From assembly GCA_934132895.1 (NCBI GenBank), contig CAKPAG010000006.1, positions 933 through 64,932 of the forward strand: a stretch of DNA of 64,000 nt, read 5' to 3'. The translations under genes were made by a program, and so were the position numbers. Positions 1,952 through 23,092 of this stretch are shown here, one piece after another (position 1 is the stretch's first letter; the number at the start of each line of letters is the position of its first letter). Origin of the DNA: an uncultured Clostridia bacterium (GTDB lineage: Bacteria; Bacillota; Clostridia; TANB77; CAG-465). The notes beneath the pieces are model-generated. The model searched no databases. It had not been told where the DNA came from and saw nothing but the letters and a program-made list of their open reading frames with translations.

Positions 1952-3478
1952 TTACATTCCAGTAAATGGCAATTCTTCAGAATATACCACATTATCATTT
2001 CCGATTGTTAAATTTATAACTTCTCCCATTTTTGTAATTTCAGCTTTAAAAGTATTACTATTTAACACATAATATTTACTTGACTTAATCTCCTTAATAT
2101 AATATTTTCCATATTCTAAGTCCTTTGATGTAGCAACACCATTTTTATCTGTAGTTATAGTATCTACCAATTCGTTATTTTCATTATATATGTTAAAAAC
2201 TGTATCACATAATGGTGTATTTTTCTTTAAACCAGAGAGTTTATTATCTTCATTACTTAACTTTAATATTTTTATATTTCCTTTTATTTTATCATTAGAT
2301 ATAGAAATAGTATTTTCTTTTTCCATTTTAACTTTTATATTATATGCATTTTCTTCTTTTGAAATATAATAGCCTTTAGAAGCTTCTATTTCTTTTAGTT
2401 CTAATTCTTCTGATTTAAAAATTTTTAAATCTTTTGAAATATCTAAGTTTATCTCACCATTTTCATCTGTTACATATTCTCCTAAAAGTCTACCTGTTGA
2501 TTTCAAACTTATACTAAATTTGGTATTTGGAAGCCTAATAGCATTATCATCTTTATCTACTTTTATAATCTTTAAATACGTTGGAATATATTTTAATTCA
2601 TTATCCATTTTAATAATATTTGTTTTTAAAGGTCTTAAAGCAAGTGCTGTATTTTGCTTTGATGAGTCTAAAGATGCACCAAACATAACAGAATTTTCTT
2701 TTACTAATGTATCAAATTCTAGACTAAATTTTATATTTTCTAATACTTTATTTCTTTTTATTAATATTTTTACCTCTTTTTGATTTGTAATTTTATCTAT
2801 TTTGTTATTATTTAAATCTGTAATAATAGCCTCTAATGAATTTTTCCTTAAAACTATTTCTTTTACATTTTCGTTATACTCTAATTTTATTTTTTTGCTA
2901 TAATATTCCTCGTCTTTATCATCTATTTTAAATTCTTTTGATACCTCTACTATATTTACTGTATTTGGTAAAATCTCAGTGTTTATACCTTTTTCATATA
3001 TGTTTCTTATTGCATTTGCAACTTTTATTCCCTCCTGATTTAATGCCTCAATTTTTCCAAAATCTAAATTGCTAACATAACACCAAGCTGCAAACTGAGT
3101 TGCAAACTTTGCTTCATCTTCTGTACTTAAACCTAACTCACTTGGACTTTTATATGGATAGCCATTAAGTATTATGTTATTAAGCGTCTTATCTTGTAGC
3201 TTTTCATTTACATTTACATCATACTCTCCTTTTTCTGCGCCATCCATTCCAAGATTTATACAATATGCAGGATATCTAACCCCTTCATTATCTAAATAGT
3301 AATAGTCAAAAAAACGTTGCGAAATACCATTATATTTTATATATCTATTCTCATTTTTATTATATTTTATTCTATGCGTACCTAAATCAATATTTGTATT
3401 ATCATACGCTGCAAATATTTTGCTCATTGTAACTATTATTAATAACAAAAAAGCAATTATTTTATTTTTCTTTATCAT
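1952..3478 (-). CDS. secreted thioester-domain (TQXA) adhesin-like protein ending in LPFTGM
   Basis: N-terminal signal peptide MIKKNKIIAFLLLIIVTMSKIFA; Cys...Gln thioester signature (PAYCINLG ... FATQFAAW); C-terminus ...EELPFTGM then TAA with no hydrophobic tail; ATG overlaps sortase stop (TAATG) with AAGGGGGAA RBS. Confidence 0.6.
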   Translation of the reverse strand: MIKKNKIIAFLLLIIVTMSKIFAAYDNTNIDLGTHRIKYNKNENRYIKYNGISQRFFDYYYLDNEGVRYPAYCINLGMDGAEKGEYDVNVNEKLQDKTLNNIILNGYPYKSPSELGLSTEDEAKFATQFAAWCYVSNLDFGKIEALNQEGIKVANAIRNIYEKGINTEILPNTVNIVEVSKEFKIDDKDEEYYSKKIKLEYNENVKEIVLRKNSLEAIITDLNNNKIDKITNQKEVKILIKRNKVLENIKFSLEFDTLVKENSVMFGASLDSSKQNTALALRPLKTNIIKMDNELKYIPTYLKIIKVDKDDNAIRLPNTKFSISLKSTGRLLGEYVTDENGEINLDISKDLKIFKSEELELKEIEASKGYYISKEENAYNIKVKMEKENTISISNDKIKGNIKILKLSNEDNKLSGLKKNTPLCDTVFNIYNENNELVDTITTDKNGVATSKDLEYGKYYIKEIKSSKYYVLNSNTFKAEITKMGEVINLTIGNDNVVYSEELPFTGM

Positions 3479-4119
3479 TAATTTTCCCCCTTTATTTCTA
3501 CAGCTCTTAAGCATAATCTTTTGTTTTTATCATTATTTATAGTGCAAGTTATACAAGTAATAACGTTTTCATTAGTTTCTTCTAAAACTGAAAAATCATT
3601 ACTTGCTACTTCAAAAATTTCTTTAACTGCATATTTTCTTTGAGCCCCATTAAAACTATATATAATCTTATCTCCAGTCTTTAGGGTATGCAAATTTTTA
3701 AACAGATCTGAAGTATATACAGAATAATTATGTGCTGCCAAACAAACATTTCCATTAAAGTCTGCTGAAAATGTAAAATGTCCTACATTATTTTTTAATG
3801 TATCTTGGTCAACGCCTTCATGTATTTCTTCATTATACATATTAATGCTTGGAATTGTTATATACTTATTACTTTTATTATAATTATTTGAAGTAGAGTT
3901 ACTAACACTTTCCACATCATTTACATATGCTTCTTTATAGTTTAAATTTTTTTCTTTAGTATCTTCGATTTTACTTATCTTTAAGTCTTTTTCTTTTACA
4001 TTAGGATTTAATTTTAAGATTAAAAATATTGAAAGTAACAATATTAAATAGAAAATAATACCTAGAATTAATACTTTTGAATTTAATGTTATTTTTTTAA
4101 GATTTATACTTTTTCTCAT
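3478..4119 (-). CDS. sortase family transpeptidase
   Basis: N-terminal TM anchor, LAAHN and VITCITC (TLxTC-like catalytic Cys) motifs; translationally coupled to downstream LPxTG protein. Confidence 0.7.
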   Translation of the reverse strand: MRKSINLKKITLNSKVLILGIIFYLILLLSIFLILKLNPNVKEKDLKISKIEDTKEKNLNYKEAYVNDVESVSNSTSNNYNKSNKYITIPSINMYNEEIHEGVDQDTLKNNVGHFTFSADFNGNVCLAAHNYSVYTSDLFKNLHTLKTGDKIIYSFNGAQRKYAVKEIFEVASNDFSVLEETNENVITCITCTINNDKNKRLCLRAVEIKGEN

Positions 4120-4278
4120 ATTGATATGATTTTTAAATTTATATTTATATATTACATGATAAAAAAATATATATATTTAAATATTTGAATTAAAAACTTA
4201 TATGAATTAAAGTTTGAAACAATACACCTATATTATATATTTGCAGTATCTGAAAGTCAAGAAAAATCGGTCGTAAAA

Positions 4279-4317
4279 TTTCGACAAAAAAAGAGAAAAC
4301 AATTTACATATTTGTCT
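4279..4317 (-). terminator. Rho-independent terminator after DUF3006/MBL operon
   Basis: AGAGAAGACAAATATGTAAATTGTTTTCTCT hairpin followed by TTTTTTTGTCG on minus strand, ~20 nt after stop at 4336. Confidence 0.55.
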
Positions 4318-4335
4318 TCTCTTAATTTACTCTTA

Positions 4336-4563
4336 TCAAAGCCAAAGGTCCTTAGTTAAATCATCTATTTCCATTTTTCTTTTTTGGGTTTCATCTATGT
4401 CTAAAACATATTTTTTTCCATCAAATTCTAATACGTCCCCTTCTTTAACATCTTTAGGCAAATCCTTTTTTAATATGTTTACAAATTTAAGCTCTGAAGT
4501 TTCACATACTGCAAACTCCTCCTCAAATCTATCTATTATATACTGTACCTTATTATTTTCCAT
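4336..4563 (-). CDS. DUF3006-like small protein
   Basis: 75 aa; 11-nt overlap with upstream MBL gene (common MBL+DUF3006 pairing). Confidence 0.4.
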   Translation of the reverse strand: MENNKVQYIIDRFEEEFAVCETSELKFVNILKKDLPKDVKEGDVLEFDGKKYVLDIDETQKRKMEIDDLTKDLWL

Positions 4564-17956: not shown

Positions 17957-18724
17957 CTAAGCTATTTTATAGTTAAATTTACTATTTTCTTTTTCTTGCA
18001 TTTCTTCATTTATTCTTTCCTTATTTACAACATAAGCAGGAATATACGAAATTAAAAATGCGAGCATTCCTACTAAAAATAATGGTATGATTGCCGGAAT
18101 ATCCTTTAAAAATGGATATAATTTTAAAGTATTTTCCGGAAGTGAAGTCATCATTATATAATTTGTTCCAAATATATTATTTCCAATATTTACAATTACA
18201 ACATAAATTACTCCTACTAAAAAAGCTGGAAGCATATCTTTAAATTCTACTTTGTAATCAAGTACGAAAAGTAAATATAGTGATGTTAAAAGCATTAAAT
18301 GATGACAAATGATAAACTGCCAAAATTCATACACATCATAAGTATGCCTTAAATCAGACCAAATTATAGCTGGAAGTGGACCTATAAATGTAAAGAAATA
18401 TATTATTTTATATAACTTTTTATTTCCACTAAATAATATATATATCATAAAAAAATTAGTCATAAAGCATAAATGTAATGGTAAATCTTCCATTATATTG
18501 AATGTATTAGTAGCGAACATGCCTACATAATATATAATCATATTAATACTAAGTATAGTTCCCATTACATATCTTACATTTTCTTTATATTTAAACTCTT
18601 TTAATTTTTTTCTTGCTAAAAATAAAATAAGTGATAAAAAAATGAGTAGTATTACCATAGTAAGATGTAATTTGTTAAACATATGGAAGCTAGTGTTTCC
18701 AATACCTGCAAAAAAGTTATACAT
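17957..18724 (-). CDS. integral membrane protein (YwaF/TIGR02206-like?)
   Basis: 255 aa, ~7 TM helices, LPLHLC motif. Confidence 0.35.
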   Translation of the reverse strand: MYNFFAGIGNTSFHMFNKLHLTMVILLIFLSLILFLARKKLKEFKYKENVRYVMGTILSINMIIYYVGMFATNTFNIMEDLPLHLCFMTNFFMIYILFSGNKKLYKIIYFFTFIGPLPAIIWSDLRHTYDVYEFWQFIICHHLMLLTSLYLLFVLDYKVEFKDMLPAFLVGVIYVVIVNIGNNIFGTNYIMMTSLPENTLKLYPFLKDIPAIIPLFLVGMLAFLISYIPAYVVNKERINEEMQEKENSKFNYKIA

Positions 18725-18851
18725 TTTCTCTCTTCCTTTCTCATATATTATATAACTTTTTTTGACATTTTTCTACTCATTTCTACACTTTTAAAAAAAT
18801 TTTTATGCATAAAGAGCAACAAGAATTACCTTATTGCCCTTTATATATGAT

Positions 18852-19166
18852 TTAAAGAAGGATTTTAGCAGCTCCATAAATAAAACTACTTATTTTATCA
18901 TTTGGTCTATCCATATATATTCTATTCTTCTTAGCCGTATTGTATATAATACTAATATCTTCAAAATGACTTCTTAATTCTTCATCACTTATTAATCCAA
19001 AAGGATTAAAGAATGCTCTAATATCCATTTTGTAATATTTATTATAATATATGTCTAATATATTACTTAAAGCTACATCAAATCTCTCTTTTTCCTTTCC
19101 CTCTTTTAAAACCTCTCTTACTCTCATAATACCATATGAACTTTCAAGTGCATACTGTTTTTCCAT
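18852..19166 (-). CDS. hypothetical protein
   Basis: 104 aa ORF with GGAGG RBS; no recognisable motif. Confidence 0.35.
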   Translation of the reverse strand: MEKQYALESSYGIMRVREVLKEGKEKERFDVALSNILDIYYNKYYKMDIRAFFNPFGLISDEELRSHFEDISIIYNTAKKNRIYMDRPNDKISSFIYGAAKILL

Positions 19167-19247
19167 TAGTAAAAACCTCCCAAATATTTTAAATTACATA
19201 ATTATTATACATCTAAATTAAAAAAAAGTCAATTTTTTCGACATCTT

Positions 19248-19277
19248 TTGCTATTTCTTGCATATATGTGATATAAT
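19248..19277 (+). promoter_or_regulatory. sigma-A promoter (extended -10) for mtnN
   Basis: TTGCTA - 18 nt - TGaTATAAT at 19272-19277; ~25 nt upstream of AGGAGG RBS. Confidence 0.5.
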
Positions 19278-19303
19278 TTATATACTTTTAAAGGAGGATT
19301 ACC

Positions 19304-20008
19304 ATGAAAAATAAAACAATATTAATACAAGGTGCTATGGATATTGAGATTGAAACTATTCTAAAAAATTTAGATGAGATGACTAAGATTAATATATCGG
19401 ATTTTGAATTTTATATAGGAAAAATAAATAATTATAAAATTATAGTTTCAAAAACCCTTATCGGAGAAATAAACTCAAGTATTGCAACAACAATTGGAAT
19501 TATGAAGTTTACACCTGACTTTGTTATAAATCAAGGCATTGCTGGTGCCCACAAAGAATATATTCATACTGGAGATATAATTATAGGAAAAGGCTGTCAA
19601 AACATTAATGCATATTCTATGCCAGATAAAAAATTAAATGAAGGGTCTAATCCTTTCGAATGGAAATTGAGTAAGCATTCCAAAGCTATTGAAACTAATA
19701 TAGAATTAGTTGAAAGATTTGAGAAATTTTTTACTAATAACTGTGATAATATAATATATACTGGCATGCTAGGAAGTGGTGATGTATTTAATAGGGAAAT
19801 TGATAGAATAAATTGGGTCTCAAATACATTTGATACGCTTTCAGAGGACATGGAAAGCATTGGAACATATGAAACCTGCCATAAATTCAACATTCCATGT
19901 ATTGGAATTAGAATAATATCAAATAACGAAATATTAAAAGAACAATTAGATGAAAATCAAGCAATAGTTTTACAAAATTTGATAGTATCAATATTAAAAA
20001 ATACTTAA
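19304..20008 (+). CDS. mtnN: 5'-methylthioadenosine/S-adenosylhomocysteine nucleosidase
   Basis: ILIQGAMDIEIE N-terminus, GIAGA, SEDMESIG motifs typical of MTA/SAH nucleosidase. Confidence 0.8.
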   Translation: MKNKTILIQGAMDIEIETILKNLDEMTKINISDFEFYIGKINNYKIIVSKTLIGEINSSIATTIGIMKFTPDFVINQGIAGAHKEYIHTGDIIIGKGCQNINAYSMPDKKLNEGSNPFEWKLSKHSKAIETNIELVERFEKFFTNNCDNIIYTGMLGSGDVFNREIDRINWVSNTFDTLSEDMESIGTYETCHKFNIPCIGIRIISNNEILKEQLDENQAIVLQNLIVSILKNT

Positions 20009-20135: not shown

Positions 20136-21200
20136 ATGACAAACTCAAAAAAAGATTTAAATGCACAAAATTATCGGTCAAGAAATGAAATAAAGCATGA
20201 GAAAGTATTGCTTCTTGGAGAATTTTATAAAAAGTTTGGTAGAGAGCCTAAAATGATTGAGGAATATAATGGAATAAAGATTGGAGAATTTCTTAGTCGC
20301 ATTAGGCATAAAAAAACTTTAATCACAGATGAAGATAGAATTTACCTTGAAAATTTAAACATAAGATTAATACCTATTAAAAGAGAAGAAGCAATCCATC
20401 AAAAAGTTTTAATATTAGCTGAATTCTATAAAAAATTTGAAAGGTATCCAATGCAGGAAGAAGAATACAAAGGAGTTAAACTACACAAATTCTTTTATGC
20501 TATTAGGTACTTTAGTATTAACATTTCGGACTCGGATAGAGCGTTTCTAGAAAGTCTTGAAAAAAATTTGCCTACCGCAAAATATTATAATTCCACTCAT
20601 AAAAAAGTTTTGATTCTTGGTGAATTTTTACAAGAATTTGGAAGAATACCCAAATGTTATGAAGAATATAAAAATGTTAAAGTTGGAGTTTTGATGACCA
20701 ATATTAGACATGGAAGTGCCAAACTTTCGGAAAAAGACAGAAGGTACCTTGAGAGTTTCAACATAGAGCTATCTGCTAAAAAGTCTAAAAAACTTTCAAT
20801 GCAAAAAAGAGTTTTAGCACTTGGAGAGTTTTATCAAAAATTTGGAAGAAGTCCTAAATGCAAAGAAGAATACAATAATATAAAAATAGGAAGCTTTCTT
20901 ACTTCTATTAAAAGCGGACGAATTATTCTTAAAGATAAAGATAGAAAATATCTTGAAAATATTGGAGTAAAATTAGAGCCTCAAAATCCCCAAGAATTAG
21001 TAAGAGAAAAAATTTTAATTCTTGGTGAGTTTTATCAAAAATTTGGAAAAGTTCCTAAACTTGATGAAGAATATAAAAACATTAAAATTGGAAGTTTCTT
21101 CTACTGCATTAAAAAGGGGATTACCAAAATATGTGATGAGGACAGAATTTATCTTAAAAACTTAGGAATAGACTGTTCTACCAATATAACTACGAGTTAA
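20136..21200 (+). CDS. protein with five tandem ~70-aa helicase-associated (HA)-like repeats
   Basis: five repeats of KVLxLGEFYxKFGRxPKxxEEYxxIKIGxFLxxIR....DxDRxYLExLxI. Confidence 0.5.
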   Translation: MTNSKKDLNAQNYRSRNEIKHEKVLLLGEFYKKFGREPKMIEEYNGIKIGEFLSRIRHKKTLITDEDRIYLENLNIRLIPIKREEAIHQKVLILAEFYKKFERYPMQEEEYKGVKLHKFFYAIRYFSINISDSDRAFLESLEKNLPTAKYYNSTHKKVLILGEFLQEFGRIPKCYEEYKNVKVGVLMTNIRHGSAKLSEKDRRYLESFNIELSAKKSKKLSMQKRVLALGEFYQKFGRSPKCKEEYNNIKIGSFLTSIKSGRIILKDKDRKYLENIGVKLEPQNPQELVREKILILGEFYQKFGKVPKLDEEYKNIKIGSFFYCIKKGITKICDEDRIYLKNLGIDCSTNITTS

Positions 21201-21221
21201 AAAATTGAATAAAGCACAAAT

Positions 21222-21253
21222 AGAGCCAACACTTGTTGGCTCTATTTGGATTT
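21222..21253. terminator. bidirectional hairpin terminator
   Basis: AGAGCCAACA/TGTTGGCTCT 10-bp palindrome followed by ATTTGGATTTT on plus strand; T-rich on minus too. Confidence 0.5.
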
Positions 21254-21282
21254 TAATTGTTTAATATTACTCTATATTATCA

Positions 21283-21328
21283 TATTCCTCATCTGTTACA
21301 GCTTCACACCACTCATTCGAAGTGTTTT
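21283..21328. repeat. 46-bp direct repeat copy A (displaced duplicate of cupin gene 3' end)
   Basis: TATTCCTCATCTGTTACAGCTTCACACCACTCATT[C]GAAGTGTTTT; 45/46 identical to 22342-22387. Confidence 0.7.
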
Positions 21329-21338
21329 GATAATTATT

Positions 21339-22295
21339 TTAATTTAAAAAATTCATAACTAAATCGATTATAACTTCTTTTTCTTTTGGATTTGACTCAG
21401 CAATAAGCAATGTTAAAGCCGTCAATGTATTATTATCAATAACTTGTTTACTATCTTTATACAAAATATTATAATAACTCAAAAAGTAGATAAATAATGT
21501 TGCTGCTATTCTTTTATTTCCATCTATAAAGACATGATTTTTAACAATCATATATAAGAAATTAGAAGCTTTTTCCTCTATACTTCTATAAACTTTCATT
21601 ACCATCAAATGTTTGATAAATATTTCCTATTATTGATTCTAATCCTTTATTTCTTTCAATAGCAAAAATATCACTTTCTTCATTAAATCTTAACTGATTA
21701 ATTATTTTTAAGCAATCTTGATATTTAATTTGTTTCTTACTCTCACTCCCATTAGGTTTTGATAGTTTTTTATGATCATAATCATCTAAAAGTTCAAGAG
21801 CTTTGGAATAGTTTCCTATTACTTTTAAAATTTCTTTGGCATCATTATTTTCTAATTTTTCATCTATTCTATTAGCAATATCTATCAATTTCACTGTCTT
21901 TTCTAAATATTCCAATCTTTTTTGATTAATTGAATATCCTTTAATCATGTAATCTTTTAAAATTTTATTTGCTCATTTTCTAAAAATAACACCATTTTGT
22001 GATTTAACACGATAACCAACACTTATAATTACATCAAGATTATAATAATCTATTTTTCTAGTTTGAGTTTTATTTGCTAAAGCACCATGTGAAGTGGTGT
22101 GTGCAAATTTTGCACACACCTCATTTTCATCCAATTCTTTTTCTTTAAAAATGTTATTTATATGCCTTTTATTACTGTTCTATCTCTATCAAAAAGCATT
22201 GCTAACTGTTCTAAAGATAGCCACACAGTATCATCTTTCATATTAACTTCTAATTCTATGTTTTGATTTTCAAATAAAATTATTTCATTTTTCAT
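21339..22295 (-). pseudogene. RhuM-family / Fic-Doc virulence protein pseudogene (2 frameshifts + in-frame TGA)
   Basis: N-term MKNEIILFENQNIELEVNMKDDTVWLSLEQLAMLFDRDRTVIK (RhuM-like); conserved ...ELDENEVCAKFAHTTSHGALANKTQTRKIDYYNLDVIISVGYRVKSQNGVIFRK-TGA-ANKILKDY with TGA where Trp expected; C-term Doc motif NHVFIDGNKRIA; frame breaks at T4/A4 run (22167-22170) and at GAAAGTTTA (~21586-21608). Confidence 0.65.
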
Positions 22296-22324
22296 ATAAT
22301 CTCCCATTTTATTATTGTTTATCT

Positions 22325-23064
22325 CTAATTTAACTTACTGTATTCCTCATCTGTTACAGCTTCACACCACTCATTTGAAGTGTTTTCTCCAGGCACTTCT
22401 ATTGCAATATGACTAAACCATGAATCTTTAGTTGCTCCATGCCAATGTTTTACATTTGCTGGTATTACTACTACATCTCCTGGTTTTAGCCTTCTTATAG
22501 GTTGATTTTCCTCTTTATATAAGCCCTCACCATCAACACATATTAATATTTGACCGCCTCCACTTGAAGCGTGGTGAATATGCCAGTTATTCCTACATTT
22601 TGGCTCAAAAGTTACATTTGCAATAAACATATTATCAGTTTTTGCCAAAGGTTTTATATATGAATTTCCAACAAAATACTTAGCATATTCAGTATTTGGC
22701 TTACCAATTCCAAACATTCCACCATGTGTATTTTCTACTTTTTCATCATCAGCGTAGACTTCTTTTGCTAAATTAAATACTGCCCAAGCATTTGGCCAAC
22801 CAGCATAAAAAGCTGCATGAGTAATTATTTCTGCCATTTCTTCTTTAGTTATTCCATTATTTTTAGCATTTATCAAATGATATTTTAATGAATCATCTGT
22901 CATGCCTTTTCCCATAAATATACATATAGTAACTAAAGACCTATCTCTTAAAGATAATTTATCCTCTCTTGACCATACCTCACCAAATAATATGTCATCA
23001 TTTAGCTCTGCAAACTTAGGAGCAAAATCTCCTAAGTTATCTCTTCCTGCTGTTGTTTTTTCAT
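22325..23064 (-). pseudogene. carboxymuconolactone-decarboxylase (CMD/AhpD-like) + cupin fusion gene, -1 frameshift in A6 tract
   Basis: ATG at 23062-23064 with AGGAG RBS; MKKQQQEEIT* in frame 1 while RDNLGDFAPKFAELNDDILFGEVWSREDKLSLRDRSLVTI (CMD N-terminus) continues in the frame of ORF 22325-22915; adding one A to the A6 run (23056-23061) restores a ~245-aa CMD-cupin. Confidence 0.55.
22342..22387. repeat. 46-bp direct repeat copy B (inside 3' end of cupin gene)
   Basis: see copy A. Confidence 0.7.
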
Positions 23065-23092
23065 AATATCACACTCCTAATAATACTAATCT

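Follow-up and report, generated by a model that had tools for sequence, protein, structure and literature searches.

A single-gene RhuM-Doc cassette at the 3' end of a CMD-cupin gene in an uncultured Clostridia bacterium and its probable insertion with long target duplication

Introduction

Restriction-modification (R-M) genes can enter chromosomes by insertion with long target duplication, a class attributed to Nobusato et al. (2000) and Furuta, Abe and Kobayashi (2010; PMC2853133) in which a duplication of more than 30 bp flanks an insert of less than 20 kb without mobility genes, and which includes two 46-bp cases in H. influenzae with repeats overlapping gene 3' ends (PMC2853133). The locus described here lies in 64,000 nt of DNA from an uncultured Clostridia bacterium (assembly GCA_934132895.1, contig CAKPAG010000006.1, positions 933-64,932; hereafter the window) and comprises a 1,058-bp unit that carries a decayed gene for a protein with RhuM N-terminal and Doc-type Fic domains (RhuM-Doc) and is bounded by two copies of a 46-bp repeat at the 3' end of a CMD-cupin gene. 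The unit holds a replacement tail for the cupin, a ribosome-binding site and the RhuM-N/Doc gene, and stops 10 nt beyond that gene's stop codon. It is probably (at a rough probability of 0.6) a recombinase-free single-gene cassette that was inserted by this route.

Against the criteria of Furuta et al. (2010), the duplication measured 46 nt and was single-copy in the empty genomes (contigs L022-L026), and the 1,058-nt insert held one gene with no integrase homologue found nearby; the cargo was a RhuM-N/Doc gene and not a pair of restriction and modification gene homologues. The locus therefore resembles the R-M units as a small defence-gene unit without a mobility gene, with a long target duplication of variable length and a near-identical empty genome. 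It differs from them in its one-gene cargo, in its host among uncultured low-GC gut Bacilli, in having one junction within the homologous cupin so that the C-terminal tail was swapped, and in the repeated use of the same target gene across species, giving arrays. The movement of defence genes without a nearby integrase or transposase is only partly understood and the long-target-duplication route has been little followed up. The practical consequence of the window copy, a dead gene, is small, but the locus is a clean natural example for a non-R-M single-gene defence candidate: one species provides alleles that are intact, decayed, deleted for the start or precisely excised, and the cassette recurs in a dozen others, which makes the mechanism testable. 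The class itself is known, if little studied, and the wider cupin-end cassette arrays across gut Bacilli would be the more novel part if confirmed.

Integrative and conjugative elements (ICEs), integrative and mobilizable elements (IMEs) and cis-mobilizable elements (CIMEs) occupy the 3' ends of protein genes, such as ICESt1, ICESt3 and CIMEs in fda of Streptococcus thermophilus. Direct repeats at a gene 3' end, an open reading frame (ORF) restored by element sequence and tandem accretion are common to these elements and the present locus, and recombinase-less derivatives of them exist. The locus differs in that repeat length, register and target varied and that a recombinase was found in no allele and, among relatives, at none apart from locus L059 and a weak match at L031. 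Chromosomal integrons are stores of defence genes, and their arrays are likewise composed of promoter-less, tightly bounded single-gene cassettes in one orientation at a fixed site, here with candidate phage-defence cargo. Unlike integron arrays, the loci had no IntI (no integrase was found by phmmer and clustering tests), attI or attC-type imperfect palindrome, and the separators were decaying copies of cupin 3' coding sequence; by eye, the 46-mer (which was not folded) and the longer fragments appeared as plain cupin coding sequence without hairpin symmetry. The minimal mobile elements of Neisseria, credited to Saunders and Snyder (2002), are reportedly alternative cassettes that differ from strain to strain between conserved genes and are swapped without dedicated mobility functions. 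The three alternative haplotypes found here between the SMC/cupin genes and the PNP gene are similar, although the Neisseria elements are said to need no flanking duplication, unlike the present cassette.

Structure of the RhuM-Doc locus

On the minus strand of the window, the SMC gene (26716-23093) was followed by the CMD-cupin gene, the RhuM-Doc remnant and a displaced cupin 3' end, so that all repeat-associated genes (cupin and RhuM-Doc) shared one strand. Beyond these were a bidirectional terminator, a convergent gene for a 354-aa protein and the PNP/UDP-phosphorylase gene (19304-20008). The unit and its immediate surroundings had the following parts:

22325-23065, minus strand: CMD-cupin pseudogene (Pfam CMD, 9.5e-19; Cupin_2, 4.9e-9)
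22341-22386, minus strand: copy B of the 46-bp repeat, the cupin 3' coding end (NTSNEWCEAVTDEEY), identical to the single copy in the empty alleles L022-L026
22296-22340, minus strand: left end of the insert, with the replacement cupin tail (CAGTAAGTTAAATTAG, encoding SKLN and stop) and a 29-nt spacer holding the RhuM-Doc ribosome-binding site
21339-22295, minus strand: RhuM-N/Doc-type Fic remnant, counterpart of the 318-aa protein P0121 (from Pfam, the intact allele and PADLOC PDC-S23)
21329-21338, minus strand: right end of the insert, 10 nt (AATAATTATC) that separate copy A from the stop codon of RhuM-Doc
21283-21328, minus strand: copy A of the repeat, which is the cupin 3' end in its displaced position
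21267-21282, minus strand: native cupin tail and stop codon (TGATAATATAGAGTAA, encoding DNIE and stop), the tail of the empty alleles
21217-21248, no strand assigned: bidirectional intrinsic terminator, common to the cupin/RhuM transcription unit and the convergent 354-aa gene
20136-21200, plus strand: convergent 354-aa gene with five ~67-aa repeats, present in occupied and empty RhuM alleles and absent from L002, L027 and L109

The 46-mer TATTCCTCATCTGTTACAGCTTCACACCACTCATT[C/T]GAAGTGTTTT occurred exactly twice in the window, its copies were 45/46 identical and 100 shuffles gave no match. An earlier model-made reading of the letters (the sequence-only reading) had described this pair around the RhuM remnant, with copy A placed correctly and copy B one nucleotide too high, at 22342-22387. 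It had also recognized copy B as the actual cupin 3' end and copy A as a displaced duplicate followed by what was presumably the original terminator, and both assignments held. Translation of the cupin ORF placed copy B at its 3' end (...NEWCEAVTDEEYSKLN and stop; protein ...EEYSKLN, stop codon 22325-22327), while copy A read ...NTSNEWCEAVTDEEYDNIE and stop (protein ...EEYDNIE) ahead of a hairpin with a 14-bp stem (RNA fold -24.1 kcal/mol, z = -6.7), and the empty alleles used this DNIE tail and palindromic terminator. The last 62 nt of the window cupin consisted of copy B and a foreign-type SKLN tail of the kind that precedes RhuM-Doc genes in other genomes. A native-looking DNIE tail behind copy A and a donor-like SKLN tail behind copy B suggest that a cupin gene ending in DNIE was the site into which the unit was originally inserted. 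With a slash for the junction, the occupied alleles read ...GAGGAATA/CAGTAAG on the left and TTATC/AAAACACTTCG on the right, and the empty site GAGGAATA/TGATAAT. The insert had no compositional anomaly, its 23-25% GC falling inside the local range.

The product of the remnant, joined from three reading-frame pieces, combined an N-terminal RhuM domain (Pfam PF13310, 3.9e-23) with a Fic/Doc domain (PF02661, 8e-10), confirming the degraded RhuM gene with a C-terminal Doc/Fic motif that had been read from the letters. Both matches passed the Pfam gathering thresholds (82.5 bits against a cut-off of 33.7 and 39.9 against 24, respectively), with the RhuM match covering only the N-terminal ~70 model positions. 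Doc-type Fic toxins have the motif HxFx(D/N)(A/G)NKR, which HVFIDGNKR of the window protein fits. The protein also matched PHROG 577 ("Doc-like toxin", 5e-16) and reached 30.5 bits, below the cut-off of 38.65, with the NCBIfam model TIGR01550 (DOC_P1). Further marks of Doc-type toxins are a cognate Phd-type antitoxin gene upstream and kinase activity on EF-Tu. Only the 29-nt spacer separated the cupin and RhuM-Doc genes, and it held no small antitoxin ORF.

The search for intact homologues yielded P0121, a 318-aa protein with 97% identity in the protein search, encoded in the same species on contig L001, which was 98% identical to the window and agreed with it in gene order, in having both copies of the repeat and in the 1,058-bp size of its single-gene unit. 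Relative to this allele, the window gene carried a 1-nt deletion in an A-run at ~22171, a TGG to TGA change at 21975-21973 and a 1-nt insertion at ~21596, in agreement with the two frameshifts and in-frame TGA at a Trp codon proposed before. The ~12-kb alignment with L001 contained just two further coding indels, both in the cupin gene: one nucleotide was deleted at 23055, and the sequences differed in frame by 3 nt at ~22751. The 3.6-kb SMC gene had none. This rarity ruled out sequencing error as the cause of the frameshifts, and the lesions therefore reflect real decay and not a general error pattern. Reading of the TGA as a sign of genetic code 4 was also rejected, as TGG is used at the remnant's other Trp codon and at this position in the intact allele, and the neighboring genes are normal in table 11. 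A perfect palindrome with an 11-bp stem (GGTGTGTGCAAATTTTGCACACACC) was present inside the RhuM coding region (22096-22120; codons ...VCAKFAHT...) and scored as terminator-like on the antisense strand.

Allelic states within the species

Metagenome contigs of the same species showed three states of RhuM-Doc, namely the intact 318-aa allele, a start-deleted allele and an exactly empty site. In the commonest allele (P0122; 12 contigs; L006-L010), 72 nt were deleted between two AGAT microhomologies (~22249-22321 of the window), taking out the ribosome-binding site, the ATG and ~20 codons and leaving a 295-aa ORF from a GTG without an obvious ribosome-binding site. The empty site had been proposed as a check in the form of a cupin gene directly followed by the palindromic terminator and was found, via the 354-aa neighbor, in five independent contigs (L022-L026), which lacked exactly 1,058 nt and read ...GAGGAATA/TGATAATATAGAGTAA (cupin ...EEYDNIE and stop), then the terminator and the 354-aa gene. 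The claim of an insertion at the cupin 3' end bounded by the 46-bp repeat was thereby upheld as an insertion/deletion polymorphism, with the occupied structure recurring in 7 independent assemblies, made from various samples by various assemblers, and the reciprocal empty site in 5 others. Samples with the occupied allele included ERZ27287099 and ERZ28613827, and those with the empty allele ERZ4561110 and ERZ27287094. Compared with the single copy at the empty site, copy B was identical at 46/46 positions and copy A at 45/46, the difference being repeat position 11, where copy A had G in 8/8 occupied alleles, and copy B and 5/5 empty alleles had A.

Occupied and empty alleles were 99.5-99.7% identical in the cupin gene up to the tail, with no foreign stretch. 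In 3,501 nt of the SMC gene, the occupied contig L008 differed by 9-10 nt from the empty L022 and L023, compared with 31-36 from the window and L006 and ~100 from L001, all of them occupied. In addition, a 1-nt deletion in the cupin gene was common to the window, L006-8 and the empty L022-24 and was not in L001. The empty allele thus nests among occupied ones and may represent a secondary precise excision and not the ancestral site. Most simply, the empty state arose by precise excision via the 46-mers, or either state was transferred by recombination in the flanks.

A third haplotype (L002-L005, L027 and L109) was without both RhuM and the 354-aa gene and had another cupin tail (EECNKI or NKI before the stop codon) and another terminator, giving three haplotypes between the SMC/cupin genes and the PNP gene. 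L002 was 1.4% diverged from the window in SMC and 12% in the block of PNP, 104-aa and TMEM164 genes (window 17960-20000; L002/L003), while the SMC and IMS genes flanking this block differed by only 1.4-2.2% between the L002 type and the window. This contrast points to the import of an allelic block whose breakpoint is at the cupin tail, and judging from these alignments the locus is clearly a recombination mosaic. Within this species RhuM-Doc is being lost by mutation (window), start deletion (L006 type) and excision (L022 type).

Related loci and variable target duplications

Relatives of RhuM-Doc (69-87% identity) were identified in 285 species-representative genomes, nearly all from uncultured gut Bacilli (Firmicutes, Clostridium and Mycoplasma sp. 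CAG, "Tenericutes" UMGS, and rabbit and Hadza metagenome-assembled genomes (MAGs)). The clustered set contained 84 loci, comprising 80 species-level loci and L001, L011, L016 and L018. A CMD/cupin gene or its 3' fragment was immediately upstream on the same strand in 26/84, and 13 of the 15 closest relatives shared a layout of a cupin ending in EEY(S/N/D)KL(N) and stop, a ~25-50-nt spacer and an ATG. At L028-30 and L033, a decayed cupin fragment preceded the gene with no full cupin nearby.

Direct repeats around the related genes measured 20-143 nt and most duplicated the cupin 3' end (27-143 nt). At seven loci a second cupin 3' fragment stood just after the RhuM-Doc stop codon, with these repeat lengths and identities:

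L038: 94 nt, 94% identity
L039: 44 nt, 93% identity
L040: 143 nt, 92% identity
L059: 130 nt, 90% identity
L080: 143 nt, 82% identity
L094: 122 nt, 89% identity
L093: 27 nt, 96% identity

Non-cupin targets were used in at least three cases, at L084, where 61 nt comprising the end of a 119-aa gene and its terminator were duplicated, and at L070 and L092, where 28 and 20 nt of a terminator (that of a lipoprotein gene) surrounded RhuM-Doc and a NUDIX gene. Repeats of at least 20 nt flanked 10/67 RhuM-Doc genes compared with 2/229 control ORFs (Fisher p = 9e-6), and one of the two repeat-flanked controls was itself a cassette between cupin copies. The duplicated cupin fragments had at least four different left boundaries and some were non-overlapping (aa 227-242 in the window and aa ~193-220 in L039), showing that they have no common core. 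The downstream fragments always had their own tail and stop codon, and the cassette ended 0-43 nt past the RhuM-Doc stop in seven species.

Four rabbit-gut species carried arrays, with the order cupin, RhuM, fragment, RhuM-Doc in L049; a similar one in L053, whose contig starts with a cupin fragment; cupin, Bro-N, fragment, RhuM-Doc in L047; and cupin, DUF6273, fragment, RhuM, RhuM-Doc, Bro-N in L046. More widely, arrays behind the cupin were observed in the rabbit-gut Bacilli MAGs L046, L047, L049, L053, L054 and L059, with 105-192-nt cupin 3' copies as separators and full-length RhuM (PDC-S05), RhuM-Doc (PDC-S23), Bro-N (PDC-S13) and DUF6273 genes as cassettes, some of them broken.

Mode of insertion

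Insertion with long target duplication would have begun with incoming DNA from a genome in which RhuM-Doc stood directly behind the cupin gene, and which hence carried a cupin 3' end. One junction would form by homologous pairing in the conserved last cupin codons, ending ...GAGGAATA, and the other end would be joined 46 nt upstream, in the simplest case by a single (Campbell-type) crossover of a circularized fragment or alternatively by a template switch back behind the departure point. The predicted circle would consist of the cupin 3' piece, the tail and RhuM-Doc, with the junction ...AATAATTATC/AAAACACTTCGAATGAG...GAGGAATA/CAGTAAGTTAAATTAG. As a result, 46 nt of cupin would flank the cassette, the donor tail would restore the cupin ORF, and the native tail would be pushed downstream together with the terminator; later recombination between the 46-mers would remove the cassette precisely and give the empty alleles of near-identical strains.

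This reading is supported by the exact 1,058-nt occupied/empty polymorphism among contigs whose cupin genes are at least 99.5% identical. A genuine cupin tail at the left end of the insert suggests that one junction was made within cupin homology, and G at position 11 in copy A with A in copy B and the empty alleles is the pattern expected from a crossover to the right of that position. Several points weigh on the other side. No circular form, donor haplotype or recA dependence has been observed, and a search of JGI metagenomes with a 25-mer of tail plus spacer for the donor haplotype gave 0 hits; the 27-mer core matched one contig there, L109, which has the haplotype without RhuM. Outside the species, the nearest RhuM-Doc (P0125, on L108), situated in a MerR-flavodoxin-CMD-cupin operon with no downstream cupin fragment, had only 88% protein identity, so that a donor whose cupin 3' end matches at 45/46 positions is postulated and was not found. 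Moreover, the G could simply be a later mutation of copy A, the tight trimming of the cassettes after the stop codon in seven species is more orderly than random illegitimate joining predicts, and a trans-acting recombinase may be encoded elsewhere in these incompletely assembled genomes.

The sequence-only reading had favored site-specific integration with an att-like duplication, followed by decay of the element. On such a view the 46-mer would be an att site at the cupin 3' end used by a tyrosine or serine recombinase that was either lost with the rest of an island or acts in trans on a CIME- or IMEX-like cis-mobilizable cassette. The combination of direct repeats at a gene 3' end and a restored ORF is the classic att footprint, empty and occupied alleles exist in precise form, and the tightly bounded cassettes and their tandem accretion between cupin fragments resemble the accretion of islands at att sites. 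Nevertheless, such integration appears unlikely, because independent insertions had no fixed att core, with repeats of up to 143 nt, at least four left boundaries and partly non-overlapping fragments, and their targets (the cupin, the 119-aa gene with its terminator and the lipoprotein-gene terminator) were without a common motif. The proposed loss of an integrase from a decayed element likewise found no support, as every allele of the unit, including the intact one in L001, is a single gene of identical size.

No recombinase adjoined the unit either. By phmmer with the two L059 integrases and clustering of neighboring ORFs, with no Pfam scan of every ORF, no recombinase was detected within +/-6 kb of the homologous gene in 78/80 species-level loci (the exceptions being L059 and a weak match in L031), no integrase homologue was seen in window ORFs of 120 aa or more and no recurrent integrase cluster was present among the neighbors of RhuM-Doc loci. 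Phage carriage was not indicated, as a viral-contig scan with the intact protein gave no relative. L059 could favor site-specific integration, as its cassette array is followed, 600 nt downstream, by two tandem tyrosine recombinase genes (2343-4467; Pfam Phage_integrase, 7e-26 and 7e-19). However, this pair directly precedes sugar-transferase/epimerase-like (polysaccharide-synthesis) genes, was the sole one in the 80 loci and is probably unrelated to the cassette.

Alternatively, the repeat could be a haplotype joint, whereby a donor block of cupin (with the SKLN tail) and RhuM-Doc replaced the 5' part of the resident cupin gene by homology-facilitated illegitimate recombination or allelic block replacement and left 62 nt of it behind as copy A. 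The mosaic locus fits this explanation, with the L002 type at 1.4% (SMC) versus 12% (PNP-TMEM164) and without both accessory genes, as do the downstream fragments, which keep their own tail and stop codon like leftovers of resident genes, and the rabbit-gut arrays, which read like successive replacements. A joint of this kind is nevertheless rather improbable, because the cupin upstream of copy B is nearly identical in occupied and empty alleles and without a foreign stretch, confining any left crossover to the last ~35 nt, and because the repeats duplicating terminators at non-cupin sites would be left unexplained; its outcome is otherwise hard to tell from that of insertion with long target duplication, from which it differs only in the need for a circular intermediate. 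Short repeats are common in an AT-rich genome (23-32% GC), but chance similarity or an assembly artefact has a negligible likelihood, the 45/46 identity having no equal in the shuffles and the 12 independent assemblies (7 occupied and 5 empty) excluding both.

Insertion with long target duplication may also extend beyond this species. Tentatively, in one clade of low-GC, uncultured gut Bacilli, single-gene defence cassettes could be stored without a recombinase, in the manner of an integron, with the conserved 3' end of a CMD/cupin gene of a stress operon as their landing pad; these cassettes may include RhuM-Doc (PDC-S23), RhuM (PDC-S05), Bro-N (PDC-S13) and the DUF6273 gene. Circles with a cupin 3' piece may insert by homologous recombination and push older cassettes downstream to form arrays, of which the 46-bp repeat of the window may be the minimal, one-cassette example. 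The locus suggests that cassettes can spread between species with the end of a conserved, housekeeping-like gene as their portable homology.

Predicted function of the cargo

The intact protein P0121 matched the PADLOC profile of PDC-S23, a predicted defence family, over its full length (residues 1-318; 3.8e-124), and the full-length RhuM and Bro-N cassettes matched PDC-S05 and PDC-S13, respectively. A RhuM-domain PDC-S05 gene reportedly lowers the plating of phages T7, T5 and T4 (preprint, bioRxiv 10.1101/2024.09.26.614923). From these matches and the plating report, a role of the RhuM-Doc family in defence can reasonably be inferred, and the cargo is a candidate single-gene anti-phage or abortive toxin with a Bro-N/KilA-N-like RhuM DNA-binding head and a Doc-type kinase-like Fic domain. 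The same pairing of N-terminal RhuM and C-terminal Fic domains is present in BifA of Streptococcus equi subsp. zooepidemicus, which has been investigated as a host-cell effector and virulence factor of streptococci (PMC6529018), and the present protein differs in its Doc-type motif HVFIDGNKR and in being encoded by a pseudogene in the window. No sequence match to solved structures was found in the PDB.

Cupin decay and neighboring genes

The window cupin is itself a pseudogene, as a 1-nt deletion at ~23055 (CAAACA to CAACA) puts its ATG out of frame, whereas intact homologues begin MKKQTAGRD. The CMD-cupin gene was inactivated in most strains of the species in at least three ways and was intact only in L001 and L027. 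The first was this deletion, which lies at codon 5 and was found in the window, L006-8 and L022-24 (L008 and L022-24 also had a C to T stop), the second a 7-nt insertion near window position 22983 in L002-5 and the third an internal deletion of ~235 nt in L109. The cupin tail of L002 (6650-6690; GGGGAATATGAGGAATGTAAT...) resembled a 9-nt tandem duplication of GAGGAATAT relative to L027 (5615-5645), suggesting that the last cupin codons may be prone to slippage as well as insertion. In other species (L108, 2084-5367; L038 and L080, 4100-5900), the cupin belonged to a small operon of redox/electrophile-stress type with genes for a MerR regulator, flavodoxin-like proteins, CMD/AhpD-like, NUDIX and cupin proteins, where CMD and cupin were separate genes and RhuM-Doc was inside or at the end of the operon.

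The 354-aa neighbor was considered as part of the RhuM element and rejected, being present in both empty and occupied RhuM alleles. Its absence from the L002/L027/L109 haplotype points to a second accessory insertion at the same intergenic spot. The five ~67-aa repeats of the protein correspond to 201 nt each, it had only one close cluster among 5.8 billion proteins, and its distant relatives (50% identity or less) carry the helicase-associated domain PF03457. A further single-gene insertion of ~985 nt was identified in L001 (10376-11381), between the TMEM164-family and IMS/DinB-type polymerase genes, where the window (~17918) was empty. It encodes a 284-aa KilA-N protein matching PADLOC PDC-S22 (2.9e-122) and lies between the copies of an 11-12-nt direct repeat (TAATTTGTATT), a sequence of which the window has a single copy.

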